A DNA stretch of 64,000 bases from Leucoraja erinacea (taxonomy: Eukaryota), in assembly GCF_028641065.1 (NCBI RefSeq), contig NC_073392.1, positions 19,592,001-19,656,000 on the forward strand, given 5' to 3'. Positions 942 through 63,423 of the stretch are shown in pieces. The notes beneath the pieces were generated by a model. The model saw only the letters and a list, made by a program, of their open reading frames with translations. It was not told the DNA's origin and made no database searches. The translations under genes were made by a program, and so were the position numbers. How positions within the stretch are numbered: the stretch's first letter is position 1; the number at the start of each line of letters is the position of its first letter.

Positions 942-1160
942 ATTTGAGGACATTTTTTCTTTTTTTTTTACATTTGTATAAAAGGGCAGAGTATTTGTAG
1001 GCTGATTAGCATGATTCTGTTTGTGAAGCATGACAAAATATAATCTAAACTTTCCAAATGCATGTGGTTGCCTTGGGTCTCTGTACAGTAACATACACAT
1101 CTGTATAGTTTTTACTTGGTCAAGTTAAATTTATCATGTCACTTATTTTTTTCTAAACAG

Positions 1161-2009
1161 AAATTGACTTTTGATGACGATGCATCCTTTGGAAGTGACT
1201 GGTCTGATGTTGAGGACCCCATTCAATTAGCTACTTTTTCACAAGATTCCAGTCCAACAGATAACCTGGAAAGCTTCAAACCTGGCACTCCATTGAACGA
1301 CAAATATAATACACAGTCATCTTTTATGTATTCTACCCCTTCCGGTTCATGTGCAAAAAATTGGACTTCTCAGCAGTCTTCACAAGCTAGCAGTTTTATT
1401 GGTGATTGCTGTTATCATAACCTTGATGACGGAACAGAATCTTTCCCAAGTTACTCAAAAACAATTTCACAAGGTTCACAGTCTGCTATTTGCAGTAACT
1501 TGTCTTTTGAATCATTAGGCTACTCGTTTGATCATAGCAATAACATGGATGATAGTAAGAGTTGCGTCAACTCATCACAAGATGATTCAGAAGTTTGGGA
1601 CAATGATTCAGAGAATTGGTATCAAGAAAATTGGGGACTGAATTACCAAAGGGGTTTTGTGGACACTCATTGCCATCTGGACTTTTTATTCTCTAAATTA
1701 TCCTTTAAGGGAACTTTCACAAATTTCATGAAACTTTATGACAGCACATTCCCAGCTGAGTTTCATGGCTGTATCACTGATTTCTGTGACCCTCGTTGCC
1801 TGGTTCGTGGAAATTTATGGGAACATTTACTGGAAGAACCACTTGTTTGGGGTGCTTTTGGCTGCCATCCGCATTTTGCCCGCTACTACACAAATTCACA
1901 GGAAAGTGCAATTCTTCAAGCATTGAGACACCCAAAAGCTGTTGCATTTGGAGAGATGGGTTTGGACTACTCTTATAAGTGTTCAACAAACATTCCTGAC
2001 CAAAAACGG
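1161..2009 (+). CDS. TATDN2: TATDN2 large exon (Ser-rich region and TatD N-half)
   Basis: aaacag|AAATTG ... CGG|gtaagt; [30 protein letters not shown]. Confidence 0.93.
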
Positions 2010-9178: not shown

Positions 9179-22930
<13,752 letters not shown>

Positions 22931-23926: not shown

Positions 23927-25541
23927 TAGTTACTGGCATACCAAGTCCAAGTTCTACCATAGTATAATTTTCTTCTATTGAAGTCAGTGAGTTAGCAATT
24001 GAAGCATTCCCGATGCCACCTCTGTTCCTAGCTCCACAGCCCACATGCTGGACTAATGCTGAATTATTGATTTTTTGTTACTGAAGTTCCCCTGCCAAAC
24101 TACCTTCAGAGAGCTGGTCAGTCCTTCCAGTAGCAATTAATCTCTGATGGAATAGAAGCCTCTGGTGCAAATGTGTAGTTTTCCAAAGAATAGGAATGGT
24201 TCTTTAAATGTTTTATTGGACTCAAACTAGTAGCCATTGTTGCTTGAAAGCCAGCTATATTTTAAAACCATTGGCCATGAAGAGGATTAAAAACAAGTAT
24301 TACACTTTTAGGGAGCAAGTCTACAACCCGATACACTTGATGACATTCATATCTCCCAGTCTTGGTGTGGAAGCCAAGGTCCTACAGGAGGATGCACCTG
24401 AAAGCCATCAAATGACAGATGGTACATATTATGTTGAGAACCCAAATCAGATTTGCCAAACCGTAGGCTGGAGCCAGTGCAGCAGATACATTCACTTTAA
24501 GAGGAGACACCTCTACAACTCTAAGGCACATAACACATTGGCAACAAGCAGCACAAAACCCTGTGCTTCAACCTTTATTTCTATACCACTCTCCAAGTTA
24601 TTTAAGAACTTTCACTAGAACATATTGTCAGTTGCCTTTGACTTTTACAAAAGAAAACAGATGCAAATGAATTATGCCATTGCTTCATATGGTGGTCTTC
24701 ATGTTTTATAAAAGCTTGCAAACTGTTCTAATCATTGCAATTTCTAAGCTTACAAGCCAAGAATACTATGGAACTGAACAGCCGTCCATCAAACCCAGTG
24801 CTTGTCCAGCAGTCAACAGTCCCACTGGGCATAATGGAAATCAAATAAGGTATGCAATCTGCTGTCACTTCTGTGCATGTGGCACTGTATGCCAGCAGAA
24901 CATTTGGTAACTGATGGATGATCCGAGTCGTGCTGGAGCCATCGAAGGTTCACCTAAAGCAATTAGTCTCACTTCTTGTAACTCAAATCAAATACTTAAG
25001 AGGGAACCTTGGTGGCTGCTTCACCTCAGAATCCTAGGTTGAACAGTGCATTGTAGTGAGTGGACATGATTCAATCCACCACTGATTTGTTTTTAAATTT
25101 GTATATAGATTAAATGTAGAACAGGTTTTTGTATCCTCTATTGAAGAGCAAGGAAGCACAATACTTTACTTCATTTCATTGCAGATTGATGAGGGGAAAG
25201 AGGTGGTCCATTTCACAGTGCCATCATTCCAATGTTTTTGTTCCTAATGAACCATTCACAACCAAACAAAAAACCTTTGAATCCACTTTTCCCTCCCAGA
25301 TGTAACGTGTACCATATGCAGTTTGTTACCTATTCTGCAGAGAAAGGACCCTCAAAATGAATTTGGCTGTTGGTCAACTGAAGACAAGTACAATGTAAGG
25401 TTAACATCTCATAGATCAGAGATGCAGTGGCAGAAATCAAGACAACATAAAGCACCGCCCCAAGCTACAACCCGAAATGACAAATCTAAGCTGCTGACTT
25501 AATTTTATTTGCTCAAAGATGACCACACTTTGACAAGGAAG

Positions 25542-25632
25542 ACAAAAATGCTGAAGCAACATCTATGGAGTGAAGGAATATGTGACTTTGGGTCGAGACC
25601 CTTCTTTTCCAGCATCTGCAGTTCTTTCTTAA
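25542..25632. mobile_element. Short Penelope-derived insertion with 17-bp TSD
   Basis: ACACTTTGACAAGGAAG at 25525-25541 and 25633-25649; contains GGGTCGAGACCCTTC (reverse of the hammerhead stem II). Confidence 0.75.
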
Positions 25633-25712
25633 ACACTTTGACAAGGAAGTCATCTGGTCCAAGAAAAGGCATGGAAGAGTATGGGAACATTTGGCTTGCC
25701 CATTAAATTATA

Positions 25713-27273
25713 CAGTGCCCTCCATAATGTTTGGGACAAAGACCTATCATTTATTTATTTGCCTGTACTGCACAATTTGAGATTTGTAATAGAAAAAAAA
25801 TCACATGTGGTTAAAGTGCACAATGTCAGATTTTAGTAAAGGCCATTTTTATACATTTTGGTTTCACCATGTAGAAATTACAGCAGTGTTTATACAGTCG
25901 CCCCTCCATTTCAGGGCACCATACTGTTTGGGACACATGGCTTCACAGGTGTGTTTAATTGCCTCCTTAATGCAGGTATAAGAGCTCTCAGCGCCTAGTA
26001 TTTCCTCCCTTTGGAAACTTTTATTGCTTGTTTATCAACAAAGTTGTGCCAATGAAAGTCAAAGAAGCCATTATGAGACGGAGAAACAAGAATAAAACTT
26101 AGAGACATCAGCCAAACCTTAGGCTTACCAAAACCAACTGTTAGGAACATCATTAAGAAGAAAGAGAGCACGGGTGAGCTTAGTCATCGCAAAGGGACTG
26201 GCAGGCCAAGGAAGACCTCCACAGCTGATGACAGAAGAATTCTCGCTATAATAAAGAAAAATCCCAGAACACCTGTCCGACAGATCAGAAACACTCTTCA
26301 GGTGTGAATTTGTCAATGACCACTGACCGCAGAACAGAAATACAGAGGCTACACTGCAAGATGCAAATCACTGGTTAGCTGCAAAAATAGGATGGCCAGT
26401 TAGTTTGCCGAGAAGTACTTAAGAGCAACCACAGTTCTGGAAAAATGTCTTGTGGACCAACGAGACGAAGATTAACTAATATCAGAACAAAATATGGAGG
26501 AAAGAAGGAACTGCCCAAGATCCAAAGCATACCATCTCATTTGTGAAACACAGTGGTGGGGGTGTTATGGCCTGGGCATGTATGGCTGCTGAAGGTACAG
26601 GCTCACTTATCTTCAGTGGTGATACAACTGCTGATGGTGGTAGCATAATTAATTCTGAAGCGTATAGACACATCCTATCTGCTCAAGTTCAAACAAATGC
26701 CTCAAAACTCATTGCACGGCAGTTCATTCTACAGCAAGACAATGATCCCAAACATACTGCTAAAGCAACAAAGGAGTTTTTCAAAGCTACAAAATGGTCA
26801 TTTCTTGAATGGCCAAGTCAATCACCCAATCTGAACACAATTGAGAATGCCTTTTATATGCTGAAGAGAAAACTGAAGGGGACTAGCCCCCAAAACAGGC
26901 ATAAGCTCAAGATGGCTGCAGACCATCACCAGAGAAGACGCCCAGCAACTGGTGATGTCCATGAATTGCAGACTTCAAGCAGTCATTGCATGCAAAGGAT
27001 ATGCAACAAAATACTAAACATGATTACTTTCATTTACATTACATTGCTGTGTCCTAAACATTATGGTGCCCTGAAATGGGGGGACTATGCATAAACACTG
27101 TTGTAATTTCTACATGGTGAAACCAAAATGTATAAAAATGGCTTTTATTAAAATCTGACAACGTGCACTGTAACCACGTGTGATTTTTTTTCTATTACAA
27201 ATCTCAAATTATGAAGTACAGAGGCAAATAAATAAATTATGGGTCTTTGTCCTAAACATTATGGAGGGCACTG
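25713..27273 (+). mobile_element. Tc1-family DNA transposon, IR/DR type, full length, inactive transposase
   Basis: TA|CAGTGCCCTCCATAATGTTTGGGACA ... TGTCCTAAACATTATGGAGGGCACTG|TA; about 225-bp TIRs with inner DRs; VKHSGGGVMAWAC, LQQDNDPKH, WPSQSPNLNTIEN; frameshifted. Confidence 0.95.
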
Positions 27274-28374
27274 TAGCTTCTCCAGCAGTCTGACTATCAT
27301 GGCTGAAGCAGTACGAGAGATTATACACCTAGGCACCTTATAAATCTATGGAACATATCTAAAGTTTGTGCACCTGTATTTTACAGTAATGCAAGCTCAA
27401 CAACAGTGAAGGATGATATACACCAACAATGGTCTGTGTAAGCCGATTACTAACCGACTCCTAATAAGACCTAGGATCCACATGAATGTTCCCTAATCTC
27501 AGCTGGACCACGCAGAAAGTTTAATGGATCTTGTGCTAATATCGCAGGAAGAGGCACAATTGCAGCTTATGTCAAACAAATTAAAAAGCATCCTGAGCAA
27601 AAAAAACTCTGCATCTGCACTCTCATATCTTAAAAAGCATCCAAGATTGTAAATCCAATGCAATGGTTATACATCTTCATCACTGTGGCTTTGCCAACAC
27701 AACTGAGATTACTCAAGTTTGAATGATTCAACAGATCTAATAAACCAGTCTTTTATGTCAAGTTTTCCTCCCAGGAAATCTCAGACACACTTCTTAGGTA
27801 TCTCCTGGTTTTTTTCAATGCAACACACTTTTCACATGGGAGCTAGTGAACCTTGAGATTGTATCATGTGAACTATATCCAGAAGTCATGGACCAAATTA
27901 GCCTGCCCATTATTAAAATAATGCAATCCAGAAACTACCTGGGTTGGCATGCAATTTTCAACAGAATTAATGGATAGGTTTATGCCAGCCATTTAGCAAC
28001 AGGACATACTAACAGTGGCAAGGCCACGCACGTTTCATTTAATGCCTTATGAGTAGAGTAGGTCACGAGTGGTAGTAGGAAAGACTTACTTCCCTTTGCA
28101 CTATCCAGTTTGCTCTCCTTTATCAACACTAGGTAGGAGTCAGAGCTGTTAAGGTGGGGCAGCAGGATACAGCCTAAACTGCACTGGCAGCAGAAACAGA
28201 GAAGTCATGCAAAGGCAACATTGAGGCAGCTGACCTGTAAATGCCTGCCAGAATGATCATGAGGTTCTGGAACAGAAAAGTAAAACGCAAAAGACAAAAT
28301 AAATAACATTTCACACAGAGGTTAGTTATGAAGGCAAGGCATCTTGTTCAGATCCTTTTGGTTTACTTTCTTTT

Positions 28375-34600: not shown

Positions 34601-37600
34601 TTTTAAGGCAATCTAACCATTATTCGACACACCGAAACCGAAACAGATAGGTGCAAGTCTCCAGACTCTCCCCAAAAGCCAAAGGATTGCTGGCATTGGA
34701 GGACACGCATGGCTCAGTAAACTCAGGGGCCTGATACACTGATCAATTACAATTTCTCAGAAGCCAAGCATACTGGAAAAAATAAATTACAACGGTATAT
34801 GGTACAGAAGATAAATGGTGCGATTAATGCATCATAAGATATTTCCTATTCAGAAATCTCACCTATGCAGCTCTTTAGTAATGGGTCAATTGCTTGTGGA
34901 TGGTCTGAGATCGTAAACTTGACAGCAGTCACCACTGTGCTTCGTGCATAGGCAGAACCTACGGATGGCACAACGGAAAATTAAAAAGATGAAACACAAT
35001 GTACATCAATTTTTTTAATAAAACATATGACATTTTAAATACAAATCTGGGACAAATTCCTTCACAATTTCAGTTCGAACACAAATTTGGCTAAAGACTG
35101 ATAAAAAGCAGAAGTAGTGAGTTTAGGAAAAGAACAGGCAGACCGCTCACTCAACATTAATGGGCCATATTGGAAAACAATGGCTGTTAAACAAGTAAAC
35201 GTATTTCATTTTGAAACCACAAACAGATGAGCTTATTTTGACTCTTGGAAGCTCACAACTAAATCAAAGGTCTAAGAGAATCAACCAACTGTTATTTGAA
35301 AATAACCTGCAATTTGGGATTTTTGCTCAAAAACTAGGGATGCTGAATTGAGAGAAGCAAAGATAGATGAGAGACAAATACCTGATAAATCCCTGACGTA
35401 TAATTCAAAATCATAGGTAGACAAAAGTGCTGGAGAAACTCAGCTGGTGCAGTAGCATCTATGGAGCGAAGGAAATAGGCAATGTTTCTCCAGCACTTTT
35501 GTCTACCTTTGATTTTCCAGCATCTGCAGTTCCTTCTTAAATAATTCAGAATCATGTTTTGTATCGCAATTAACCAAAATGTATCAACCTGATATACACA
35601 ATTTGTGTTTCAGGATGTGGACACTGCTTACAGTGCCAGCATTTATTTTGAAAATCCCCAATTGCCCTGCAGGACTGGTGGCAAGAAACAATCTTATTGA
35701 ACTGTTTGAAATCCTTATGGGGAAAGGGGAAGGTAAAGAGTTCCAGTATTTAGACTATGTGAACTTGAAGGGCAAGTGATATATATCCGAGCCAGGATGG
35801 CATGTAACTTGGAGAGGAAACTTGGTGACAATGTTCCCCTGCACCTGCCGACTTTCTTTCTCTTGGTCATTGAGGTCAAAGGTTCGACTTGATTTCTCTT
35901 CATGGTTCATCCTAGTTCTGATATCTGCATTTATTATGCCCCACTGGGCTATAACAATATTGCTCAGTGATAAACTATGAGCATAGAAAGAACACGTGAA
36001 TTGCCTGGTTAGTGACAGAAGTTGGGCTTCCCGAGTAGCATTTACAGGAAGAAAACTCAGGTTAACATATTAACAATGAGGCATATATTCACCACTAGCA
36101 TTATTGCCCCCAAATCATTAATGTGTTGAATTTTCACCCCACGTTTTCTAGACCAACATTACATTCTGGAACTCAGCAATTCATTTGTCAGGTGCATTAA
36201 ACAGAACTCCAAAAAGGTACCTCAGGGTAATGCAGAAAACTCAAATGGCATTATTTTAAAGTCAAATGCAATCTTCCCGAGCAATTTGGTCCAATTGCTA
36301 ATCTTCAAATAGAATCAAGTCACTGACAAGCATCAGCCCAAGCTTTGAAATACATTTTACAGCAATCATGGTATTTTTGAACCATGTTGTGCACAATTTG
36401 ACTTAGATTTCTAACATGAAAACTAAAATTATATGTAGACGTACTTAATTGATTATAACACATGTTGGGATATCAATTGACCATGAAAAGCAGATATTTT
36501 CTCACCCCCCAAACGATATCACAGGCAATGATGGCCCAATTCTATGCAGCCATCGTAGAGTCTGTCCTCACCTTCTCCATCATGTTCTGGTTTGGCTCAG
36601 CCACCAAGCACGACATCCGGAGGCTGCAGCGAATCGTCCGATCAGCTGAGAAGGTTATTGGCTACCACCTTCCCCCCATTGATGAACTGTACACTGCAAG
36701 GGCCAGGAAGCGAGCGGGTAAGATCATCTCTGACCCCTCTCACCCTGGCCACAAACTCTTTGAATCACTTCCCTCTGGAAGGTGACTCTGGACTGTCAAA
36801 GCTGCCACGGCCAGACATAAAAAAGGCTTTTTTCCACGAGTAGTAGCTCTACTCAATAACCAAAAATCTGTAGCCTCTTTTTGCTCTGGTATTTTATTTA
36901 ATTCACATGTTTAATCAATAATGTTATATTACTCTACAATGTTTTATTATTAATGTTTAATGTTTTATGTGTCATTCCTAACTGTCACTGTATGTCGGTG
37001 TCAATTGCGGGCAGAGCACCAAGGCAAATTCCTTGTTTGTGAATACTTGGCCAATAAACTTATTCATTCATTTATTCATAAACTTATTCATTCATTCTGA
37101 TGCATCAGGTGCAACAAATTATTTCTATACTCACCAGATGTAAGTTGTTTCTTTAGCCTGGGTAGCAAGTGGGATGGATCAATGAGGGTTAACTTTCCTA
37201 AACATTCAGCCACCACATTACGAGTTCCTTCTTCAACGCACTCGCAGTTTTTGAACAGCAAAGCCCAAATGTCTTGAATGTAAGGTTTTAAACTGTCTGC
37301 TGAGGAAGAACTAATAACCTCTTTCAGCGAATGCAGCAACAAGTACTGACGCTTGGGCTGACCACTGATCTCCTTGAGAATGAAAGGAAGATAGTCACTG
37401 AGGTTTCCCACGCTGATGTTCCCTAATGCATAGGAAGCCGCCGACTTTACTTCTTCACTAGGTGATGAAAATGCTTCAAGAATGACCACCTTGAGCTCTT
37501 TGTGTGCACCCAAGTTCATGGTGCGGCCTATCTCACCCAAGGAAAGTAGAGCCAGCAAACGAACTGAGTCAGAGGATTTGGGATTCTTCACCTCTTGAAC

Positions 37601-40600
37601 AAACTGGTTCACCACTGAACTGGCATCCTTTGGACAAGCTGAAGTAAGCGCTGCCACGCATTTCGCCACAGAGTAATAGGCTTGCTTGTGCAAAAGCACA
37701 GGACCACCTGACTGAGCTGATGAATAGATGGTTCCTGTCAACTGCTTGAGTAGCTCCATGTACCCCATGTTGGGAGTCTTGGATATGACCAAAGCCTGGA
37801 AGAAGTCCAAAATTGCATTCAGAGCCCCTCCTTGCAGCAGCGGTGAGTGAACCAGGTTGAATAGCTCAATCAGAATTGACCCACCGATCTTGGAAACAGA
37901 TGAAGGGTAGACTTTGGCTAGAGACGTCAAGAAGGTGATAGCCATCTGGGAGACATGCATGTCACTCTCCCCAATGAGGGACGGAAGCTCCTTCAAGACT
38001 GACTCAATCATCATTGGCTTTAGGCTGTCACTGTAGTTCTTAATCAGGATATCCAGTGCAGCAAGGGTGCTTAATTTTAATGCACGTTGGTTCTTCCTTA
38101 GAAAAGAGGCCAGGATGGGAACTGCTTCACCAAGAATAGGGCGCAGATCAATTTTTAAAGGAGAACTTGCAATCAGTGTCAAAGTCTTGACTGTGGTCAG
38201 TCGTGTGATTTCATTCTTCAGTCGTTCAAGGAAGATTAGCAATGTGGGATTCAGGTCAGCACCTAGACTGTCTCCCAGATTACAGATGATTTGCCCCGTA
38301 CAGGCAATTGCTCTCTCCTTTACTTCCTGGTCAATATCTGCTGCTTTTAATCTCTTCAAAGTGTTACTAAACAAATCCTTTACATATGGCTTAGCATCGA
38401 ACGAACAAGGTTTGCCCAGTGGACGGATCACCTCTATAAGTTGTTGAGTCACCAGCAGAGCCTCGGAGGTGATTTTGTAAAAAGGGTCACTGATGCAGGC
38501 CACCGTTGGAGGCAACAAAGTCTTAACATGGGGGTGAAACACTTCTGGGGGATGATTGCAGAGAATGACATGGAGGAAGGTCAGTGCATCAATCTTCATG
38601 TTTGAGGTACTTGATTTGTCAGTAAGGGAGTAAATAATGCCTGTAAAATAAAGAAAGTGGGATCAGTTCATTGTTTCTGAGCAATCAAATATTATGATTC
38701 AAGCTAGACAAAATTGTTGGAGAAACTCAGCGGGTGAGGCAATATCTATGGAGCGAAGGAATAGGCGATGGATCGGGTCGAAACGCTTCTTCAGACTAAT
38801 GTAGGGTGGGGGGGGGTGGAAAAAAGAAAGGAAGAGGCGGAGACAGCAGGTTGTAGAAGAGCTGTGGAGGGGAAGGAGGGAGAAAGCAAGGATTACCTGA
38901 AATTAGAGAAGTCAATGTTCATACCGCTGGGATGTAAATTACCCAAGTGAAATATGAGGTGCTGCTCCTCCAATTTGCAGTGGGCCTCACTCTGGCCATG
39001 GAGGAGGCCCAGGACAGAAAGGTTAGATTCGGAATGGGAGGGGGAGTTGAAGAGTTGAGCCACTGGGAAATCAGGTTGGTTAAAGTGAACCGAGTGGAGG
39101 TGTTGGGCGAAGCGATCGCCAAGCCTGAGCTTGGTCTCACCAATGTAGAGCAGTTGACACCTGGAACAGCGGATGCAATAGATGAGGTTGGAGGAGGTGC
39201 AGGTGAACCTCAGCATCACCTGGAAAGACGGCTTGGGTCCTTGGATGTAGTCGAGGGTGGAGGTAAAGTGACAAGTATAGCATTTCCTGCGGTTGCAAGG
39301 GAAAGTATCAGGGGAGGGGGTGGTTTAGGTGGGAAGGGACGAGTTGACCGAGGAGTTACAACAGACAATAGGTGCAGGAGTAGGCCATTCGGCCCTTCGA
39401 GCCAGCATAATTCATGGCTGATCATCCCCAATCGGTACCCCGTTCCTGCCTTTTCCCCATATCCCCTGACTTTAAGAGTCCTATCCAGCTCTCTCTTGAA
39501 AGCATCCAGAGAACCTGGCTCCACCGCCCTCTGAGACAGAGAATTCCACACACTCACAACTCTCTGTGAGAAAAATTGTTTCCTCGTCTCCGTTCTAAAT
39601 TACTTGCCTCTCGTTCTGAAACTGTGGCCCCTGGATCTGAACTCCTCCAACATCGGGAACATGTTTCCTGCCTCCAGCGTGTCCAAACCCTTAACAATCT
39701 TATATGTTTCAATAATATATCCTCTCATCCTTCTAAACTCCAAAGTGTACAAGCCGAGCTGCTTCATTCTCTCAGCATATGACAGTCCCGCCATCCCACC
39801 ACAGACAGACCGGTCTCTGTGGAAAGCAGAAAGGGGAGGAGATGGGAAGTTGTGGCCAGTGGTGGGATCCTGTTTGAAGTGGCAAAAATGTTTGAGAATT
39901 ATCTATTGTCTGTGATGGCTGGTAGGGTGGAAGGCGAGGAAAAGGGGGGCTCTGTCCTTGTTACGAGTAGGGGGATGGGGAGTGAGAACGGAGCTACGGG
40001 ATTATAGAGGAGACCCTGGTGAGAGCCTCATCTATAGTCAAAGAGGGGAACCCCCGTTCCTTAAAGAATGAGGACATCTCCGATGCCCTGGTTTGGAACA
40101 CCTCATCCTGGGTGCAGATGCAGCGCAGACGGAGGAATTGGGAGTAGGGTATCGAGTCCTTATAGGAAGCAGCGTGGGAAGAAGTGTAGTCCAGATAGCC
40201 ATGGGAGTCAGTTGGTTTGTAGTAGATGTCAGTCAGTAGTCTGTTACCTGCGATGGAGATATTGAGGTCAAGAAACGGTAGGGAGATGTCGGAAATGGTC
40301 CAGGTGAATTTGAGTGCCAGATGGAAGTTAGTAGCGAAATGGATGAAGTCATTGAGTTCTGCATGGGTGCAGGAGGTAGCACCAATGCAGTAGTCAATGT
40401 AGCAGAGGTAGAGTTCGGGGATAGAGCCATGGTACGCCTCGAACAAGGATTCAAGCTTATCACCAGAGGTCTCTCTACAAATTCACAGTCCATCCTCAGC
40501 CAAACCCAATCTCCTGGCCAACAACCTTGCAGACCGTGCCAAGATAGAAGTAAAAGCATTTGGTACATCATCTTTTTCTCAAATTTACAAAACTTTACAT

Positions 40601-43600: not shown

Positions 43601-46600
43601 CGAGCTCGAAAAGATCATTCGCCCATTTATCTCCTCCCACCTCGATTACTGCAACTCCCTTTACACTGGCATCAGCCAATCTTCCCTGTCCCGCCTGCAA
43701 CTGGTCCAAATCGCCGCAGCGAGTCTCCTGACGGGCACCCGAAAAAGGGACCACCTCACCCCGATTCTGGCCTCTCTCCACTGGCTTCCTGTGCAGTTCT
43801 GAATAAATTTCAAGATCCTTCTTTATGTTTACAAAGCCCTTAACGGCCCCCACCTATATCAAAAGTCTGCTTACCCACCAAATCACTTCTAGGTCCCTCA
43901 GATCGGCCGACTTGAGGTTACTGAACATCCCGCGTCTAGACATAAGCTCTGAGGCGACCGTTCCTTTGCGGTTGCAGCTCCTAGACTGTGGAACAGCATC
44001 CCTCTTCCCATCAAAACTGCCCCCTCCATTGACTCTTTTAAGTCGAGACTTAAAACTCATCTTTACTCTCAAGCCTTTCTTGTTGTCCTCTGAGGGAGGG
44101 CTCCATGTATGTATTTATGTATGTACTTAATCTATGGACCACTGTTGTATAACGTTAGTGCCTCCACCAATGTAAAGCACTTTGGTCAACGAGTTGTTTT
44201 TTTAAATGTGCTATAGGAGGTCCTTGTTCATCAGTCAATGAAAGTAAGCATGCAGGTACAGCAGGCAGTGAAGAAAGCGAATGGCATAACAAGAAGAGTT
44301 GAGTATAGGAGCAAAGAGGTCCTTCTGCAGTTGTACAGGACCCAAGTGAGACCACACCTGCAGTATTGTGTGCAGTTTTGGTCTCCAAATTTGAGGAAGG
44401 AAATTCTTGCTATTGAGGGAGTGCAGCATAGGTTCACAAGGTTAATTCCCGGGATGGCGGGACTGTCATATGCTGAGAGAATGGAGCGGCTGGGCTTGTA
44501 TACTCTGGAATTTAGAAGGAAGGGATCTTATTGAAACATATAAGATTATTAAGGGTTTGGACACGCTGGAGGCAGGAAACATGTTCCCAATGTTGGGGGA
44601 GTCCGGAACGAGGTGCCACAGTTTAAGAATAAGGGGTAAGCCATTTAGAACAGAGATGACAAAACACTTTTTCCACACAGAGTTGTAAGTCTATGGGATT
44701 CTCTGCCTCAGAGGGCGGTGGAAGCCGGTTCTCTGGATACTTTCTAGAGAAAACTAGATAGGGTTCTTAAAGATAGCGGAGTCATGGAATATGGGGATAA
44801 GGCAGGAACGTGGCTGATTATGGATGGATGACCGAATGGCCTACTCCTGCACCTATTGTCTAGATTAGTATAACATACTAAGAGGCAAAGCTGGGCCACA
44901 AAACATTCCGAGATCACTGTGGGGCGACTGAGTATTCTTTAACTTAACTTGTTTAGAATTCTCACAATGTAACATTCAATCCCAGACCAGGCCACCCAGC
45001 ACCATCGAATAACAGTACTCTGATGAAAATTTATTGACCCGAAAGATTGACTCCTCTCCTCCACAGCTGCCTGACTTGTCGAGTATTTCAAGCATTTGTT
45101 TTATTATTTCTATAGCTACTTTCCTTGATTAAAATGCCCCACTGGCTTTAACAACTGATATACTAATTTCACCCTAAAAACATTAATGGGATTTTCTCTC
45201 TTCACTTGTCCTCTTTTCTTCTCGAGAGCTTATTTCTGCATTGACAGAGTTTTTCCAAAGGCCATTGTAAATATCCAGGCAATTCCCCCAAGAGATAGTA
45301 AATACTTGCTCATAATTTTGTGACTGAAACTAATAGATTTTTTTGCACAAGATTGTCAAGTGATACAAATCAAATCCAGGTTTCTAACGTATGGATAAGT
45401 CAAGGCCTAAATGAAAAGCAAAAAAGAGATTTTACTGGCCACCTCCTCTCCTATGTTCACCCCAAAGCTGTTGATTACAAATTGTTGTTTCATGGGCAAT
45501 AGAGATTTACAATACCTCACCAGTGGCATTTATTTTTGTCTGAGCTCATGGCTTGAGGTTATAGCATGGTTCACACTGATACTCTCCTCACCTGAAATCC
45601 ACATGTACCATTATTAACCCTGGATGATTGTCGTCCTTTTACCCAGGAGTGTTGAAAGTATCCCACAATAAAATCAGTCAACTAAGGTCAGCCAGTAACT
45701 CAATGGAGGGTCCTCTGGTTAACTATACACAGTATAAATTTGTCATTCTGGCCAGCACCGGAAAAGTCACAAGGCCTTTTCCTTTCCTCTTATTTATGAT
45801 GCCATTCCAACCATTTAACATTGTTGCATTTTGTTTAGAAAGTATAGAAGTAGGCAGCACAATGGTAGAGTTACTGCCTTCGATTCAGACAATGGGTGCT
45901 ATCTGTAGATTTTGCATGTTCTCCCAGTGATCACATGCGTTTTCCACGGGTGCTTCAGTTTCCTCCAATATTTCAAAGACATGCGGGTTTGTAGGTTAAT
46001 TTGCTTCTGTAAAATATCCCTGGCGTATAGGAATGAACAGGTGATTGCTGGTTGGCATGGACTCGGTGGGCTAGAGGGCCTGTTTCAATGCTGAATCTCT
46101 AAACTCACAAGTTTACCTCACATTGTTGAGCACTGACCTTGATCTTCCTCTTCATCACCCTTTTCGGTTTCCATAGCATCTTCATTATCCTCATCTTGGT
46201 CATAGTTGTAATTCGGATCATATGTGATGTACTTTAGGCACAATCCAATCATGGCAGGAATGTGAACTGACATTTCCTTTGGACACCTGAAAAGTGCAAA
46301 CAAAATATTATGCTAGCGGTTTGAAACTGCAGCAGTTATGAAGTTAGTTGTTTAACCATGCATCATTATATCAAATGTTTGCCAATATTTGGGTGCCATG
46401 TTGTCTGACAAAGCACAATACATTCCAAATCAGAATTTAAGCTGAAACGTTAGATGAGAAATGGGATAGTTGGCTTTGATGCAGCCTTACTGAGGCAAGA
46501 TAAGTAGAACAACGATTTGATGACCACACTAAGCTGGCTTTCGTTCATATTTCACTTGGGCAGCTTGCACCCCAGCGGTATGAACATTGACTTCTCTAAC

Positions 46601-49600
46601 TTCAAGTAACCCTTGCTTTCCCCCTCTCCATCCCTCCCCTTCCCAGTTCTCTGGCCAGTTGTACCGTCTCCGACTACATTTTATCTTTGCTTTGTTACCT
46701 TCTCCCAGCTAACAAAGATATATTCTACATTTTTCTTTGAACCTCATTCCCTTTGTCCTGTTTTCACACCTTACACTTCCTTATCTATGTACCTCTCTCC
46801 CCTGACATCAGTCTGAAGAAGAACCTCGACCCAAAACGTCACCCATTCCTTCTCTCCAGAGATGCTGCCTGTCCCGCTGAGTTACTGCAGCATTTTATGT
46901 CTATCATCAGTTCTCATGGTTTCTTCCAAGAGTTGTTCAACAAATATTCGTCAGTTGGCTATGGATGAACAGTGATCAGGGAGAGGTCTCCTTGCTACAG
47001 TTTTACTTGCTGCCATGAGACACCACTGGAGTCAATATAAAGAATTCTCAGGTCTCTCATTGTTCCACCATCCTCAATGGATTTGCACTGCCAGTAGAAT
47101 ACAACGCACCCGAGACTAAGTAACAGTGAGTAAACGAGTTAGAATGGCAACGGCACTGTCACACCACACACAATAAAGCTCATATTGTTAAAGAATGCTA
47201 TTTTTACTCCTCCTTCTTTGTAACCAATGCTTCCTTCCTCACCCCATCTCACCTTCAGCCTCTTCCATACTACGTTACACTGACTTCTGTACAATTCATG
47301 CATAATCCAACCAGTCATCATATTGTAAGAAGACAATCCTTCGCATGAGATCCAAAGAATGGATGAAAAAAGGATGAAAATATGAAATCAAGCTAGAAAG
47401 CAAAAAAATTGGACATAGTTTTTGAGACGGAGCATGGAAACAGGCCCTATGTTCCACCGAGAGCACGTCGACCATCGTTCACCCATTAACACCCGTTCTA
47501 GGTTATCCTACATTCCTACAAACCATCACGTCTTTGGGATGTGGGAGGAAACCCATGCAGTCAAAGAGAATGTACAAACTCCACACAGACAGCATTCAAG
47601 GTCAAGATTGAAACCGGGTCTCTGGCGCTGTTTGGCTGAATCTCCACCAGCTGCATCACTGTGGTTTCAGGTTTTCAAGTACAGAGCAGGATTGATCTAG
47701 AAACATGCCTCCAGACTGGGCTGGTGCACTATCATGGTAAAGGAGTGTGCTAACAAGCGCAGAGTAACGCACCTTCTCACAAATGACTCGAACGCCTGGA
47801 AGCAGTACTCCCGTAGCTCATCATCGTCCACATTGCAGTACTTTACAACCAGCGGAATAATATTCTCCAAATGCTCTCCTAAAAAACAGATACACACAGG
47901 AGATAGTCAATAAGGGGAGGGGGGGGGCCTTGGGGGGGGGGGGGGGGGGTTGCTAAATGTATAAATAAGCTCAAATTGATATTTGAAAAAGTTTATTAGC
48001 TCTTTAAGGCTCTTTCTTTAACACGTCATCAATCACACGCTGAATGCTGTCCCTAATCTTCAGAACTGAGCAAATCTGGGATTTCCACTTTGACTGTTGG
48101 GAAACATCAATGCTACATAGGGTGTAATATTAATGGTAATACTTCATGGTAATTACACAAGGTATTTCACAAAGATAGTGAAAATCTGGAAACTTCACCC
48201 CAAAATTCAGTATATTCAGGACAATTGAAAGAGATTGACGACTCTTTTTGGGCAAGTCTACAGGGGTAATGGAACCATAGTACACTGAAGGAGTAAAGAT
48301 ACATCAGTGGGAGATCTATCTGAATGCAGGATGCTCATTGGGATTAACAACTCACTACCGTTCTTATGCACATTTGGGTTTGATTTAAAGCTTGTTTTAT
48401 GCTATCCTAACAAGCCCTCTCGGGTCAGTTACAGGACGTTGCAGAGCACAATCCTACTCCACCAAGTTGTTAATCATAAGGCCATGGATTAACAATTCAG
48501 GATTTTTCACTATCTCTGCACAAGGTGCTATCACCTCCTCAATATGAACTTTGATAAAGATTTTATATTTTTATCCACCGAAAACGGTGTCTGAGACGGG
48601 CTGGGAAGATCATCAAAGACCCCTCACACCCCAACCATGGACTGTTTGCCCTCCTCCCATCAGGGAGGCGGTACAGGAGCCTCAGGTCACGTACCAGCAG
48701 GATGAGGAAAAGCTTCTATAACAACACAATCACACTGCTGAACTCGGAGTCCCGACGATAGATTTCTCTGGTCCCTCCGTCCCCCTTTGTTTAATCATTC
48801 TGTATTTCCTGATTATTCTGTATCTTCTCTCTTTCTATTTTTTTCTTGTTTTTTCTCTTTATGTACAACTACTACGGACTGACGCAAAACTGCATTTCGT
48901 TGTACTGATACTTGTATTTGTGCGATGACATTAAAGTTGAATTGAATTGAAAAAAAAAAAATATTGAGCAAAATGGAATTCGCTATTCTGATTGCACCCA
49001 TAAACGAGTGAAGAAAAAAGTCAGTATTGCTAAAACAGCTGAGAGCCTTGCAGGCACTCACCAACTCTGTGCCCAGCCTGTCGACTGATGGCACCAATGC
49101 ACTGGATGTAGGTTCTGGTCATGGAGGTAGATTCATTTTTTGATAGTTCCACCATTAGGTGATCCATTAGTTCAGAGAAGAGACAACTGCTGCAACTCAT
49201 CACCAGGTGCCCCAGAGAGATGATGGCTCTCTTCCGAACAGCTAGCCTTGGACTTGACAGCTGGGGTAGCAGACAACTCAGAATGGAAGAATGAAATGTG
49301 ATCAGAGTCCCACCTAATCTGTAAAGAAAGACAAGAGGAGATATTATGTTCTCCTTGAGTTATACATAGACCTGAGTGAGATGAAATCTCCCTTTAGTTC
49401 TGCTTTGACTATGACTAATCTTAATTCCAAAACTCAATTTGGCATCTCACATTTGACATATTCAGTTGGATGGCCATTTATGGCGAACAAAATCTATCTG
49501 GATTTCAAACAAGAAGTTAGAAAGATCTACACTAAAATCGGTTCAGCTTACTAATGAATTGTAATGTTAATTATTACAGTAATACCATATCAAGTACAGC

Positions 49601-55600: not shown

Positions 55601-58600
55601 TTCGGAGGCAGCATGAAACGTAAAGTTGATGGTGGAGAGGTTGGTCTGTGTAATGGACTGGGCACATCCACAACTCTGCAATTTATTGTAGTCTTGGGCA
55701 GAGCTGTTGCCAAACCAAGCTGCATCCCAAGATGATGCTTCCTACTATGCTGGTGAGAGTCATTGGAGACATGCTGAACTTTCTTAGACTTCTTGAGAAA
55801 GTAGAGGTATTGGTGTGCTTTCTTCACCGTAACTTCAATGTGGTTTGTCCAGGACAAATTGTTGGTGATATTTACATCTAGGAGTCTTACACTCTTCATC
55901 TCCATTACAGCACCATTAATGCTGATTTGGGCATGTATACCACCTTGTTTCCTGAAGTCAATAACTTCATTGTCTTACTGACATTGATGAAGAGGTTGTT
56001 GTCTTGACACTATGTTACGAAGCTCTCCACCTTTGTTCAGTATTCTATCTTGTTATTGTTCGATGTTCAGCTCACTACAATGATGTCATCTGCAAACCTG
56101 TAAATGGATTTAGAGCAGATGTTGGCCCCTCAATCTTATATATATTGGGGCTGAGAATGATTCCTTGCACTATTGTTAAGAATTATCGTAGAGGATGTTT
56201 TGTTGCCTATCCTTGCTGATTCAGGAAGTTGAAGATTCAGTTGCAGAGGGGAGGTTCCTGCAAGTCCGGGAGTTAGAATGCAAGTTTTTCTGTTTCTATT
56301 ATAAGTTATCAATAACAAAATTACTTAATCCTTAACTCGTACGACTACTCCTTCACCTTCTTAATTTATTTAATCTTGTGGATGTTAAGAATTCAATTCA
56401 CCTTTCCGAAACCACATCACAGGAACTTCCCTTGAACTTCAATGTGTGCTTACAATTCATTCAAGTTATTCCTTATAGTCTGGACTTTTGTATAAGGAAC
56501 ATTTATTCCACACATTCTGAGCTGCATTTCTGCTCTGATCGATTATCCACAAGTTTCTTGTTTCTCTCCCCACTTGACATACTTGATGCCTAGTTTTCCT
56601 TTCAGTTGCAGTAGTAAAAGCACAATTGCTGACTATCAGCCTGTTCTCATTCGAGAAACTATTGAAACCAACTCCAATCTCACTAGGCCCCTCTCCCTTT
56701 ATCATCTTGCCAACATATGAATGGATTTGTTAACTGGTGCTTACCATTTCACAGCCAAGTTTTGTACCTCTCCATTTTTATCCTCCAGCAGTTTAAGCAG
56801 CATCTTCACCACTTTCTTCTCACTGTCATCATCCAACTTGATAGAGTCTTTCTGTAATTCCACCATCAGGTCATTGGTGGCCATGAACCTGAAAAACAAA
56901 AATTAATGAAGATTTATTAAAAACACAAACCAAACAGTTGAAAACAGCAGCAGTGGGGGCGATTACTTGGATAGATCTTGACCGTCTAAAAGTAGAATGG
57001 CCTTGAGATACCATGAGATCCCACTATTACCATGACGAAAATATCACCTACATATTAAATTAATATAGACCAGTACAGCCAACTAAAGGCTTTATAATCT
57101 ACAAATATCTAAGGCACAAATAGGTGTGAAATTCTTTTTTTTTTTATGAATCAGAGCATGCTGCCATTAAATGCTTTGATTTTCCTTTGAAAATTCTACA
57201 AAATAATCCTGCAAGATGATGCTGCATGCAAAGTGAATTCACAAAATATTCACACATGAACATTTTCTCAAAGTCGAAGAACTGACGACTATTAATACCT
57301 AATGGGCCTGTCCCACTTAGGCAATTTTTTTGGAGATTGCTGACGACCGTCATGGTCGTAGCAGGTCACTGAAAAAACAGCGACTGGACCCCTTTACGAC
57401 AATGTCTACAATAACCTACCACCTTGACGTCAAGTTGCGGCAAGCTACCGACAAACGGCAACCCATAGGACGTCCACACTTACGACAGCCTACGTTCACC
57501 CGAAACAAGGTAAGACAAGCTACGGTCAGTTGCTGGTTGACGTAGATAGTCGCCAATTCACCGGTCAGCACCAGCAACAACCAACGTCATCCTGGCGACA
57601 ACCAACGACAGGACCTATGTCAGGAGAAGTCAAGCTACGACAAGCCCACTGTCGCCGAAAAGTTTTGAACATTTCGGCGACCAGAAAAATGCTACGATTC
57701 TTTGGCGACTGAGGATATCATACAGGCGACACCCCGGTGACCGTGTGATGACAGCCTAGTGGTCTGTAGTCGCCTAAGTGGGGACAGGGGCATTAGATAA
57801 GACACAAAAAACTGGAGTAACTCAGCGAGTTATGCAGTATCTCTGGAAAAAAGGAACAGTGACATTTCAGATCAAGATTCTTCTACACTCTTCAGAAGAA
57901 GAATCATGACCCAGAAAGTCACCTAGTCCTTTTTTCCAGAGATGCTGTCTGACCCACAGTTTGTGTGTCTATCTAATGCCCCTGTCCCACAGGCGATTTA
58001 ATAACAACAGTCCTCGGGGCTCAAGGGGGGGGGGGGAAGAAGAGGGGGGGGGGGGGGGTGGGGGGGAGAAGAAAGTGCAGGGGGGGGGGGGGGGGGCAGA
58101 GAAAGAGTGGGGAAGAAAGTGTCCGGGAAGGGGAAAGAAAGATAAAGAGCTGGGGGGGGGGGGGGGGGGGGGGGAAAGGAAAGGGGGGGGGGGGGGAGAG
58201 AAAGAGGGGAGGGGGAGAAAGAGAGGGGGAGGGGGGGAGGGGGGGGGGAGAAAGAGAGGGGGAGGGGGAGAAAGAGAGAGGGGGAGGGGGAGAAAGAGAG
58301 GGGGAGGGGGAAAGAGAGGGGAGAAAGAGGGGGAGGGGGAGGAGAAAGAGAGGGGGAGGGGGGGAGAAAGAGAGGGGGAGGGGGGAGAAAGAGAGAGGGG
58401 GGGGGGGGAGAAAGAGAGGGGGAGAGCCGAGGGGGGGGGGGGGGAAAGAGTGGGGGGGGGGGGGAAAGAGCCGAGGGGGGGGGGGGGGGAAGAGGCGGGA
58501 GGTTGGGGGTGGGCCGAAGGGGGGGGGGGGGGGGAGGGGGGGGGGGGGAAGAGCGAGGGGAAGGGGGAAGAGCTGGGGTGGGGAGGAGGGGTGGGAGAGA

Positions 58601-59125: not shown

Positions 59126-59313
59126 ATCGACAGTGGGATGCAGAAGATCTAGATACACTCAATTGTCCCATTTACCGAGGTACAGTGAAATCGTTTTACA
59201 TACAGTTTAGTAGAAGTATTACTATACATAAGCACATCTTAGATACAGTACGAGTGTATAGAAATAGTACACAGGGACAGTATGTCATTGATTTCTCCAA
59301 GTTAGGGAACTAG

Positions 59314-59623
59314 TGATTTCTCTAACTTCAAGTAACCCTTGCGTCCCCTCTCTCCGACCCTCCCGCACTCTAGTTCTCCAACTAGTTTGACTGTCCTTCT
59401 GATTGATGTTACAGATTGTATGCCTCCGTGCCTTCCCCATAGCTAACAATAAACTACTCTGCATGTCCTTATCATGGTCTGCTTTGATCTTTCACACCTT
59501 ACCTCTCCGTATCTCTACACTCCTTCGCCCCTCAGTGTCAGTCTGAAGAAGTCTCGACCCGAAACGTCACCCATTCCTTCTTTCCAGAGATGCTTAGTTA
59601 CTCCAGCATTTTGTGTCTATCTT
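59314..59623 (+). mobile_element. Penelope 3' end with hammerhead-like core
   Basis: DFSNFK* then 3' UTR; CTGAAGAAGTCTCGACCCGAAACGTCAC at 59543-59570. Confidence 0.82.
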
Positions 59624-60352
59624 CAGTATACAAGTCGCCTGGTTTGGCGCCATTTTCAACTCTCCTGTTTGTTTTAAGTGCAGAGTTCTTAACCTGTCCG
59701 TGAAGGCCTTTGTCCCGGCGGCGTTGCAGGGTCGCTCCTGGCCAAGCGTTGCAGTTGGTGTCCTCTACTGCTGCTCCACCGCACCTTCACATAGAGGGCT
59801 CGGGGTGCAACGAGTTGTGTAGGAACTGAGGATGCAGTCGAGGGTTCAGTGATGGATGTGCACCAAGAGCAGAGTGGGAGGTCAAGAGTTCTATTTTGTC
59901 ATATGTCCCAGATACAACAATAAAAAATCTTACTTGCAGTAGCACAACAGAATATGTAAACATAGTACTCTGTAATCAATACAATTACTGAGAAAAAGTT
60001 CAGTGTGTATGTATAGATACACATAAAAACAAACAATAATAGTGCAAAAAGACAAAACCAATGCCCCCAAAATCTGTAAAGCAAGGAACTGCAAATACTG
60101 GTTTACACCAAAGATTATAGAGTGGAGCAAGATGGTTCACTCTTGCGAAATCCAATGGACTGACGTGTAGTACGCAACGGAGCGTAACTTCCGCCATTTC
60201 AGTAAACCCGATCCGAATTCAGTTATGCCTCTCGCAATGTAATCAACGTTGCGGAGGAACAGTTTGTGTGTTTTTAAATATTTTAAATTTTTAAAAAAAT
60301 CATCTTTCTAAATGCAGTAAACCCTCATCAATTTCCCACATCACATTCCCAC

Positions 60353-61087
60353 ATGCAACGAGACCTGGGTGTCATGGTACACCAGTCATTAAAAGTAGGC
60401 ATGCAGGTGCAGCAGGCAGTGAAGAAAGCGAATGGTATGTTAGCATTCATAGCAAAAGGAATTGAGTATAGGAGCAGGGAGGTTCTACTGCAGTTGTACA
60501 GGGTCTTGGTGAGACCACATCTGGAGTATTGCGTACAGTTTTGGTCTCCTAATCTGAGGAAAGACATTCTTGCCATAGAGGGAGTACAGAGAAGGTTCAC
60601 CAGACTGATTCCTGGGATGTCAGGACTTTCATATGAAGAAAGACTGGATAGACTTGGTTTGTACTCGCTAGAATTTAGAAGATTGAGGGGGGATCTTATA
60701 GAAACTTATAAATTTCTTAAGGGGTTGGACAGGCTAGATGCAGGAAGATTGTTCCCGATGTTGGGGAAGTCCAGGACAAGGGGTCACAGTTTAAGGATAA
60801 GGGGGAAATCTTTTAGGACCGAGATGAGGAATACATCTTTCATGCAGAGACTGGTGAATCTCTGGAATTCTCTGCCACAGAAGGTAGTTGAGGCCAGTTC
60901 ATTGGCTATATTTAAGAGGGAGTTAGATGTGGCCCTTGTGGCTAAATGGATCAGGGGATATGGAGATAAGGCAGGTACAAGATACTGAGTTGGATGATCA
61001 GCCATGATCATATTGAATGGTGGTGCAGGCTCGAAGGGCCGAATGACTTACTCCTGCACCTATTTTCTATGTTTCTATGTTTCTATG
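60353..61087 (+). mobile_element. CR1 LINE (HER1-like) 3' fragment, young copy
   Basis: Intact 211-aa ORF2 C-terminus, near-identical to 74-806; (TTTCTATG)3 tail. Confidence 0.92.
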
Positions 61088-61227
61088 ACCGTCGGCACTG
61101 CCTTGGTCGCTATTTGCTGAAGTAAGTGTGTGTGTGGAAACTTGCATGATTGGTAATCTGACTGAAAGCCAAATCTGACTGGACACACGCTAATACACAC
61201 AAAAACGGCACATACCTTGTACAGGGT

Positions 61228-61515
61228 GGAACTACAGATGCTAGTTTAAACCGAAGACTGGAGTAAATCAGCGGATCAGGCAGCATCTTTGGAGAAAAGG
61301 AATAGGTGATATTTTGGGTCGACTGGTCTTCTCCAGACTGACAGTCAATGGAAAGGGAAACGGGAGATAGGCATATCTTCCATTCATTTGTCCCTAGTAC
61401 CGTCTATATCTCTTGTTCCTCTTTCCACTGACTAAGTCTGAAGAAGGGTCTCAACCCGAATGTCACCTATTCCTTTTGTCCCGAAATGCCGCCCGGCCCG
61501 CTGCATTTTGTGTCC
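61228..61515. mobile_element. Fold-back Penelope-derived element with hammerhead-like core
   Basis: Inverted arms; CTGAAGAAGGGTCTCAACCCGAATGTCAC at 61438-61466. Confidence 0.75.
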
Positions 61516-62255
61516 TTTAATCTCTCAGACTGATATAGCATAATCTCTCTGAATTAGCTTGTGCTTCCTCTGCAAAAATCTTACAGAGCAAAATTGTCTT
61601 AAATCTGGATCAAGGACACAAAAAATCCAGCTATAGCTTCATATACCAGCCTAGAACCAATTACTTCTGCCAAAGGTTAGGTCAGTTTCATCAATCTCCA
61701 GAACAAATACAGAAGACAGGAACACAATGTTACCAAATTTATTGCAGTATCGCTGTTAATTTACTGGGGAAGGTGGGACTGGTTTGGTCAGTTTTTTTTT
61801 ACTATTATTGATACATTGAGCCGAGCGAGTTTTTTTCTCGTGACTTCTCTCTGCTTCGCCTACTTCATTCAACTCCAACCTGTCTCATTTCATTATCGCT
61901 GTTGCCACAATTTTCTGAAAAAAGGCGAGTGTGGAAACACGTTTAAGCCCTTGACATCAATCGCTTGGTGTCGTTTAGACAGGCGGCCCTATGTGCCAAA
62001 CAAGTAAAAACGCACACTGGTTTGGAGTCTCAACATATCAGCACGTCGAGTAACAGTCGTTTCGACCAAAGATCGTTTTTCATGGGGAACCTGAAGAAAA
62101 GGGTCGCCTATATTGGCGATTCGAGCAAATTATAGCAGAGCAGTACGCGCTGCTTGTAGATGAGGACGCCATGACGGAAGCCGGTTACGGAAATGGCGTT
62201 GAAGATTACCCATCACCTACTACGGCTTTTTCGCGGAGTGAACCATCTTGCACCG

Positions 62256-62465
62256 AAGATCAACACAAAATGCTGACAATGTATTTCATCGGGACAGGCA
62301 GCATCTCTATCTCAAGAAGGAATGGGTGACGTTTCGGGTCGTGACCCTTCTTCAGACAGTCTTACTTCTTCAGTCAAAAGAAGAGTCTCGACCCAGAAAC
62401 GTCACTCATTCCTCCTCTCCAGAGATGCTGTCTGTTCCGCTGAGTAACTCCAGCATGTTGTGTCT
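62256..62465. mobile_element. Fold-back Penelope-derived element with two opposed hammerhead-like cores
   Basis: Minus strand 62357-62326 GTCTGAAGAAGGGTCACGACCCGAAACGTCAC; decayed plus copy at about 62372-62405. Confidence 0.78.
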
Positions 62466-62479
62466 GGAGCTTATTTGGA

Positions 62480-62700
62480 GGTTGCAGTGTTTAATAGCCT
62501 GTAGGCTGCAGGGAAGAAGCTGAACCTGGACGTTACAGTTTTCAGACTCCTATATAATCTTCCCGATGGCATGAATGAAATTAATGTGTATTCAGGGTGG
62601 TGTGTGTCCACGATGATGCTGGCTGCCGTTTTGAAGCAGCGAGTCCCGTAAATCCCTTCGATGGTGGGGAGGTCAAAACCAGTGATAGACCGGGCAGTGT
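62480..62700 (-). mobile_element. Rex1-like LINE 3' fragment
   Basis: TARSITGFDLPTIEGIY...AASIIVDTHHP...PSGRLYRSLKT. Confidence 0.75.
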
Positions 62701-63423
62701 TCGTGAAAATTAGAGTTTGGTCGTGCGGCTCAGTTATGTCTCTTGGTGCTTTGCATGCCGGCTGTAATTCCGGGGATCGGGGTGTGTTCCTGAAGCTCAG
62801 GGTGCGCTGTGTGTCCTGGAGTTCAGAGTGTATTCCCTCTGTCATCCGCGGCGCTGCAGTTGCTCGGAACCTTTGTTGCGGGCCCTTGCAGCGAGCCGGT
62901 CGGTTTAGCGCGGACGCTGGTTTACGGCTTGCCACGTCTGAGCGGAGCGGTACCGGTATCGGGACCCACAGCGGCAACGGCAACCATGGTGAGCGGCTCC
63001 GGGCGGCTTGTGCCTTCCGCGGTGGGTCGGCGAGGGTTGGCGAGGCCGTTAACCGCCCGCTGCGTGCGGTCAGGAGGTCGTTCCGTGCGACGAGGGCGCC
63101 GGCGAGGCCCGGCCCCTGGCCTCGGCGCTGATCCCAGCCTGTTGCAGGGAACCCGGGCGGGACCGGCAGAGTGTTGGTGGAAGAGGAGGCAGAGGGTTTA
63201 TGGGTCTGTTCTCCGCCCCGTTCAGCTGCGGACACATCACCTCCTTCCACATCACACCAGTCCCTCAACTTGCTCCATCATCCAGATAGTGCATGACCAA
63301 TTGCCCGCCTTTGCCCGAGATCCTTAGTTGGCTCTGATTAAGAATACCGGCTTTAAAATGTAACAGTTTGTCTATCTAATAGGCTTTGTTATGAAAAACA
63401 TCTAAACAATGGGCCAACAACAA

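Follow-up and report, generated by a model that had tools for sequence, protein, structure and literature searches.

The hammerhead-like motif at 62,326-62,357 on the minus strand of the window, the 64,000 nucleotides of Leucoraja erinacea contig NC_073392.1 that were analysed, is very probably the minimal hammerhead (min-HHR) belonging to the terminal repeat (pLTR) of a likely Neptune-type Penelope-like element (PLE) that bears an endonuclease (EN+). The copy that carries it is likely a dead, 5'-truncated inverted pair, the RNA of which is predicted to mask the ribozyme. The motif, its link to reverse transcriptase (RT) and GIY-YIG sequences, the inverted pair, the decay of the other copies and the abundance of the family were observed directly. 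The locus is composed as follows.

62,326-62,357, minus strand: the complete motif of a minimal type I hammerhead, made up of a helix I of 2 bp, CUGAAGA, an additional A, a stem II of 4 bp, GAAA, the ACGU palindrome and GUC
62,252-62,357, minus strand: left arm, a PLE terminal-repeat end piece that extends from the hammerhead as far as the shared 3' end (79% identity over 106 columns to the 46.5-kb copy)
62,358-62,369, unstranded: short centre of the inverted pair, containing a duplicated CTTCTT piece
62,370-62,466, plus strand: right arm, a second end piece in the opposite orientation, with a broken core
60,068-60,115, minus strand: PLE 'tail' piece, in all likelihood displaced from the left arm, with which it has 9 bases (62,252-62,260) in common

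From 62,357 to 62,326 the minus strand reads GU-CUGAAGA-A-GGGU-CACG-ACCC-GAAA-C-GUC-AC, which bears out letter by letter the CUGANGA, stem II, GAAA, ACGU and GUC elements named in the preliminary description; the minimal type I architecture proposed there was upheld as well. The CUGAAGA box occupies 62,355-62,349 and the GAAA box 62,335-62,332. An extra A follows A9 at 62,348, and G10.1-C11.1 closes stem II. This stem had been drawn as 5 bp closed by 2 bases, which cannot form; it is present, but as 4 bp (GGGU/ACCC) with a 4-base loop (CACG). The palindromic ACGU at 62,332-62,329 stands for the 15.1-16.1 region, without a helix III, and U16.1 and H17 of the min-HHR core are both present. The predicted cut site lies between 62,328 and 62,327. 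Helix I is 2 bp long, as had been cautioned, and is likewise 2 bp or shorter in 21 of 40 class relatives scored by the same rule.

The 32-base family pattern, with up to three mismatches allowed, matched the window twice (at this site and at 9,306-9,337) where shuffling led to an expectation of 0.00; the loose core pattern is weak, with 4 matches against 1.27 expected. BLASTN with the 62.3-kb locus yielded 13 matches, among them all six variants that had been listed earlier. These are family copies, but none of the six keeps the full motif, and the one near 62,372, described as a motif like the rest, is on the opposite strand and has CUGA changed to CAAA. An Rfam scan, suggested as a check, yielded no hammerhead hit with an E value of 10 or less, either for the whole window or for 62,200-62,500.

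The motif belongs to a family of which the following further copies in the window are the most informative.

38,703-40,452, minus strand: longest copy in the window, with the C-terminal half of RT, CX4CXXC linker, GIY-YIG, 3' UTR and a decayed hammerhead
46,545-46,911, plus strand: end of GIY-YIG, 3' UTR, decayed hammerhead and 3' end; reference for the reads
59,307-59,627, plus strand: last ORF codons, 3' UTR and a hammerhead lacking 2 stem II bases
61,214-61,525, unstranded: inverted pair with a one-sided tail, both cores broken
57,800-57,975, unstranded: inverted pair, both cores broken
10,130-10,346, unstranded: inverted pair with a one-sided tail and a 14-base exact target duplication, the centre having lost the hammerhead down to GUC
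35,400-35,555, unstranded: inverted pair with a tail and a 15-base target duplication (1 mismatch), centre deleted
25,525-25,652, unstranded: inverted-pair remnant of a tail and one arm, with a target duplication
9,249-9,348, plus strand: arm with an almost intact motif (ACAU for ACGU), adjoining a short inverted piece

The longest copy, which is interrupted by another element, a LINE, at about 39,365-39,805, is collinear with the RT, linker and GIY-YIG of full-length PLE proteins (E 6e-57 and 5e-29 against P0024 by tblastn), and Pfam places RVT_1 and GIY-YIG on proteins P0024 and P0039. The PLE of the window thus has an RT followed by a C-terminal GIY-YIG. Its linker is CNRRKCYTC, in the ORF at 38,893-39,324, and is of the CX2-5CXXC form that, preceding GIY-YIG, marks Neptune and Nematis according to the part of PMC8557442 available. 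Only Neptune and Poseidon appear for vertebrates in the accessible part of bioRxiv 2026.07.22.740005. By its sequence the element is likely an EN-bearing PLE of Neptune type, the linker being common to Neptune and Nematis. Its closest proteins are from the skates and rays Leucoraja, Rhinoraja, Amblyraja, Hypanus and Mobula, and a full-library search found 4,195 relatives of its endonuclease.

In this element the ORF stop is followed by a pyrimidine-rich UTR, the hammerhead, about 70 nt and the common 3' end, to which some arms add a tail; the motif therefore occupies the pLTR, the location of min-HHRs in PLEs. The preliminary description had tied it to the 3' repeat of a Penelope element, and this held, since copies with RT, Neptune-type linker and GIY-YIG carry it. 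It had also been placed just downstream of the GIY-YIG stop. It is downstream, but at a distance of about 100 nt in the 38.9-kb copy and about 205 nt in the 46.6- and 59.3-kb copies, and the ORF end that links the last of these to GIY-YIG consists of the final six codons only. An older, diverged PLE fragment with linker and GIY-YIG is found at 14,065-14,547 (minus strand), without 3' end or hammerhead.

A donor-like site overlaps the ORF stop (46,606; 38,897) and a pyrimidine-AG lies 20 nt past the cut site (46,860). An intron between the two that would remove the hammerhead was considered and rejected: no such joint was present among the best-supported 15 of 405, no loose ends were recorded at the acceptor, and the splice phase suits one of the two subfamilies. 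The open frame from CUG to the tail was likewise rejected as an N-terminus of the ORF. The protein search brought no candidate, no hit below E 0.5 was obtained with a profile built from 17 full-length relatives, and in a focused post-hoc test 10/100 and 92/100 shuffles were as good, which is not significant.

Inverted pairs are present at 10.2, 12.8, 35.4, 57.9, 61.3 and 62.3 kb, and remnants of such pairs at 9.3, 25.6 and 33.0 kb. Direct repeats of 15-20 nt with at most one mismatch flank three of the nine insertions tested, against 1/400 random pairs with repeats of at least 12 nt, and inverted pair, one-sided tail and target duplication occur together in three of the nine. The centres of the pairs vary from locus to locus, some being deleted at short shared words. 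At 10,250-10,266 the centre is collapsed precisely onto the helix III palindrome, ACGU (via CpG decay and an ATC slip), suggesting, as far as sequence can tell, a deletion or fold-back at the palindrome. At 57,780-57,990 a further inverted 15-base word, forming the ends of a short inverted-repeat element, lies on both sides of the PLE pair and creates a nested palindrome.

Decay of the motif is evident from the 12 arms that reach the core: seven keep CUGANGA and one keeps the whole motif. The core boxes had been expected to be conserved above their flanks. Over 14 aligned arms non-CpG core bases were kept in 103/118 cases and 3'-flank bases in 610/740 (p = 0.23), a comparison in which some flank cells are non-homologous ends that would favour the core; the expectation was not borne out. 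Neither was stem II covariation within the family, as there was no compensatory change among its copies in the window. When the arms were aligned to the 46.5-kb copy, 13 of 16 had their start in the interval from 31 nt ahead of the core to the cut site, three reached into the ORF and none started past the cut. Arms starting at a cleaved end were looked for and discarded, the four near-site arms beginning 1-6 nt before the site and none after it. The short units pass without a break into longer, 5'-truncated pieces of this element, which extend as far as RT.

Read mapping was carried out for 4 of 21 runs on 46,330-47,050 at 80% likeness. The 46.5-kb copy (370 nt) attracted 217,369 and 161,084 contigs from two DNA-like runs, and, out of 7,335,232 reads of poly(A) RNA (some 6% of one run), 16,471, giving the family about 0.2% of poly(A) reads. 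Mapping depths on this copy are not equal to copy number; with 217,369 contigs and 16,471 RNA reads on a single copy, the very high copy number claimed for the family was upheld. The RNA depth was 13,443 in the end piece and 3,673 in the core; immediately 5' of the core it fell approximately 18-fold, to 200, and it was 993 where the ORF ends. In the end piece it was even by strand (6,567 versus 6,876). Read starts or ends did not pile up at any place in the roughly 6% of one poly(A) run, which is a weak test, and the RNA ends proposed at the GUC site were likewise not seen there. The catalytic G12, part of a CpG, was G in 4,919 of 7,265 RNA reads (68%) as compared with a consensus of 88-93% at four further positions at which the reference copy has a private base, the A of the reference at G12 being a possible source of bias. 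This figure is as expected from unselected CpG decay. A-to-I editing was considered and rejected: A>G plus T>C accounted for 51 of the 151 places listed in RNA, and for a like share (31 of 90) in that study's DNA-like run.

Some observations count against the main reading. The 5' ends bunch near the hammerhead more than random truncation gives, the 62.3-kb pair is without a target duplication, and single contigs of run X15 have short units in head-to-tail order. Together, the bunched 5' ends and the 18-fold fall in depth could reflect a short self-propagating unit, although the pyrimidine-rich UTR is not alike in all subfamilies and is hard to align. A bolder and unlikely proposal is that the skate Neptune hammerhead, with its 2-bp helix I, would serve as a point where RT stops and turns round rather than as a cutter. 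The element would thereby have attained an enormous copy number as fold-back units of about 200 nt, leaving perfect hairpins genome-wide with antisense-locked ribozymes, and some of these units would be self-propagating mini-PLEs.

It seems less likely still that the short units form a ribozyme-bearing non-autonomous family, a retrozyme or fold-back 'mini-PLE' that would be transcribed, cut, circularized and copied by the Neptune protein. The very high abundance, the strong surplus of short end pieces and the clustered 5' ends are in its favour, as are a few head-to-tail joints of short units in single contigs of one run and the tandems derived from PLE pLTRs in one chondrichthyan sampled, according to the part of bioRxiv 2026.07.22.740005 (DOI 10.64898/2026.07.22.740005) consulted. 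Retrozymes are described there and in the available part of PMC7229834 as head-to-tail tandems with a complete ribozyme in each unit that yield circles, and PMC7229834 defines them by canonical hammerheads. The skate pieces share with non-LTR retrozymes the type I hammerhead, short non-coding units, the origin in a PLE pLTR and the high copy number; those in the window are, however, inverted or solo, and decayed. None of the 31 rows of Tandem Repeats Finder for the window contains a hammerhead motif, and two consecutive complete hammerheads in head-to-tail order are absent from it. The two motifs at 62.3 kb are on opposite strands, so that one transcript holds one sense copy preceded by its antisense; because it is on the other strand, the neighbouring copy is no dimer partner in one transcript. 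Moreover, the pair centres are unlike at every locus, the loose ends on the 5' side of the core vary (agreement 0.43-0.46), and the continuum up to RT-bearing copies leaves no discrete unit with fixed ends. A complete core in 1 of 12 arms and RNA without strand bias or end pile-up also argue against it. One opposite-strand joint was recorded, in 24 RNA reads, and circle-type joints were not found among the best-supported 15 of 405, from a poly(A) library unsuited to circles. The non-autonomous retrozyme-like family put forward in the preliminary description was not supported, in view of the missing tandems in the window, the variable centres, the grading into RT-bearing copies and two of the refuting observations named in advance, a core kept no better than its flank and a stem II without compensatory change among the window copies.

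The main reading, a relic inverted pair of a PLE end, is compatible with the structure of the 62.3-kb locus. Its two arms agree at 70/99 columns, and the core of the right arm has CAAAAGA for CUGAAGA and one base inserted before GAAA. The RNA of the pair folds at -111.4 kcal/mol (z -10.7), with a pair probability of about 0 for stem II and helix I, and the hairpin is predicted to bury the ribozyme core. In the folding computation the core alone, without the partner arm, also prefers a different hairpin. Contigs of a second organism span both flanks, and the insertion is therefore shared and not recent.

A 2.1-kb stretch with inverted ends (60,116-62,251) separates the tail piece at 60,068-60,115 from the left arm. 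Its inverted 24-base ends lie at 60,127-60,150 and 62,251-62,229, with a 9-base near-duplication, and it contains a CR1-like piece and another PLE pair; it is likely a decayed DNA transposon. A frameshifted reading within it, 62,172-61,946, is presumably THAP-like; none of three fragments of this remnant (61,946-62,172) matched Pfam. A LINE-like 3' UTR and the end of a LINE ORF (62,471) are situated in the same orientation on the minus strand at 59,880-60,067 and 62,467-62,800, and these flanking pieces are probably one interrupted element. The order of sequences suggests that the pair and its tail inserted into the LINE and that the DNA transposon split the insertion later.

Two host genes are found in the window.

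37,088-58,987, minus strand: CAND1-like gene, start codon at 58,987
1,092-4,600, plus strand: TatD-domain gene, converging with the CAND1-like gene

A 600-base G-rich low-complexity tract adjoins the start codon at 58,987. At 25,711-27,275 long inverted repeats surround a transposase-like ORF (26,480-27,094), by its appearance what we take to be a Tc1/mariner-type remnant.

That the 62.3-kb copy would be an active or co-opted ribozyme, cutting host RNA some 3.3 kb ahead of the CAND1-like start codon, is very improbable. Its motif is the sole complete one among the 12 arms and lies on the same strand as the CAND1-like gene. However, one survivor in 12 fits neutral decay, and the remainder of the arm is, with insertions, 79% identical to its sister copy. 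In minus-strand transcripts the inverted partner comes first and is predicted to sequester the core, the isolated core is predicted to misfold, and helix I has just its 2 bp. The double-hammerhead fold is 22.2 kcal/mol above the best two-strand fold (median of 40 class relatives, 15.7) and as bad as or worse than that of 33/40 class motifs, 7/40 animal relatives being as bad or worse, by nearest-neighbour energies that leave aside tertiary contacts and proteins.

Membership of the hammerhead class was examined in metagenome and prokaryote collections with a pattern in which the core and three stem II pairs were fixed. The core-only pattern matched at least 114 metagenome loci (other animals and microbes, without skate DNA), 29 loci in prokaryote genomes as a control, and once in viral contigs, which was taken as chance. 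Among the matches listed, a palindromic helix III follows the core in 63/100 distinct metagenome motifs versus 1/28 prokaryote motifs (p 8e-9). Of the distinct palindromic motifs among the matches listed, 58 in all and representing families of other animals outside the window's own, the helix I pair 2.2-1.2 holds and covaries in 52, the fourth stem II pair holds and covaries in 49, and the pair 2.3-1.3 does so in 42; 0 of 2,000 shuffles reach any of these counts, which are inflated by kinship among the sequences. The skate motif agrees with the class at pairs 2.1-1.1 and 2.2-1.2 and disagrees at 2.3-1.3. Minimal hammerheads of animals, dozens of them and derived from host DNA, are present in the public metagenome contigs (L002-L115), and at 9/58 loci among the matches listed another loose core lies on the other strand. 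A chance resemblance, for which the missing Rfam match, the 2-bp helix I and the marginal enrichment of the loose pattern could be cited, is barely credible and has already been largely refuted, on sequence grounds, by the palindromes and by the covariation of pairs outside the pattern, in addition to the PLE position, extra A and G-C closing pair shared with the motif of PMC4209133 in the part available.

The proposed course of events for the relic pair is as follows. A source element would be transcribed through a tandem repeat, and reverse transcription would start some 70-100 nt 3' of the cut site, on RNA uncut there; that the template was uncut at the site is indicated by the fact that every site-spanning copy keeps both sides. 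Copying would mostly halt no more than about 30 nt from the hammerhead core, after which a second short copy would be joined in inverted orientation. The pair would then decay neutrally, the left arm retaining all core bases by chance. The motif of the source element, if it cuts at all, may according to the literature do so with the assistance of protein or as a dimer via ACGU pairing.

Much of this has precedents. In the parts of the papers available, the motif class, its place in the pLTR, the opposite-strand pairs and the inverted-plus-tail structure are already in print. Minimal hammerheads were described in the pLTRs of metazoan PLEs (Cervera and De la Pena 2014, PMC4209133), with opposite-strand pairs 100-700 bp apart and a helix I typically of 4-5 bp, or 2 bp in D. 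virilis PLEs. The skate motif resembles them in its CUGANGA and GAAA boxes, the extra base between 9 and 10.1, G10.1-C11.1, the helix III palindrome, the location in a PLE terminal repeat and the mostly solo or opposite-strand truncated copies; it differs from the typical ones by its 2-bp helix I and 4-bp stem II. Cartilaginous fishes are not named among the hosts in the available part of that paper. Minimal PLE hammerheads are reported not to cleave as monomers and to be weak as dimers (PMC4209133; PMC6765202, which cites the dimer-cleavage work of Lunse et al.).

For insertions of EN+ PLEs an inverted 5'-truncated copy, a one-sided tail of 30-40 bp and an optional target duplication are reported in the parts of PMC8557442 and PMC3846280 available, and the skate insertions agree in their head-to-head pLTR pieces, the tail on one arm and the duplication in some. 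Unlike rotifer EN+ PLEs, the skate arms are usually about 100 nt, and the duplications measure 14-17 nt as compared with 8-10 nt in rotifers. For PAc, a Poseidon element of Anolis carolinensis, the available part of PMC11167929 reports that hammerhead mutants insert normally in vitro, that cleavage needs protein and that no reads end at the site. PAc and the skate element have in common a hammerhead that precedes the 3' end in genomic copies, the tail and the lack of reads ending at the cut; PAc belongs to another clade and its ORF begins inside the ribozyme.

No paper on a hammerhead ribozyme in elasmobranchs was found, the supplements of bioRxiv 2026.07.22.740005 being a place where the family may be listed, and a search by title for Penelope in skate or shark found none on the PLE family of the window. 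The 62.3-kb motif is likely a silent relic of a known kind and not a new ribozyme-driven element. With it, a motif class published since 2014 gains one host lineage, and it also serves as a warning that most such motif matches are dead end pieces. With so abundant a family it could be examined statistically whether cut or uncut RNA is the template of PLE insertions and why copying halts near the hammerhead, which bears on the role of PLE hammerheads in vivo.
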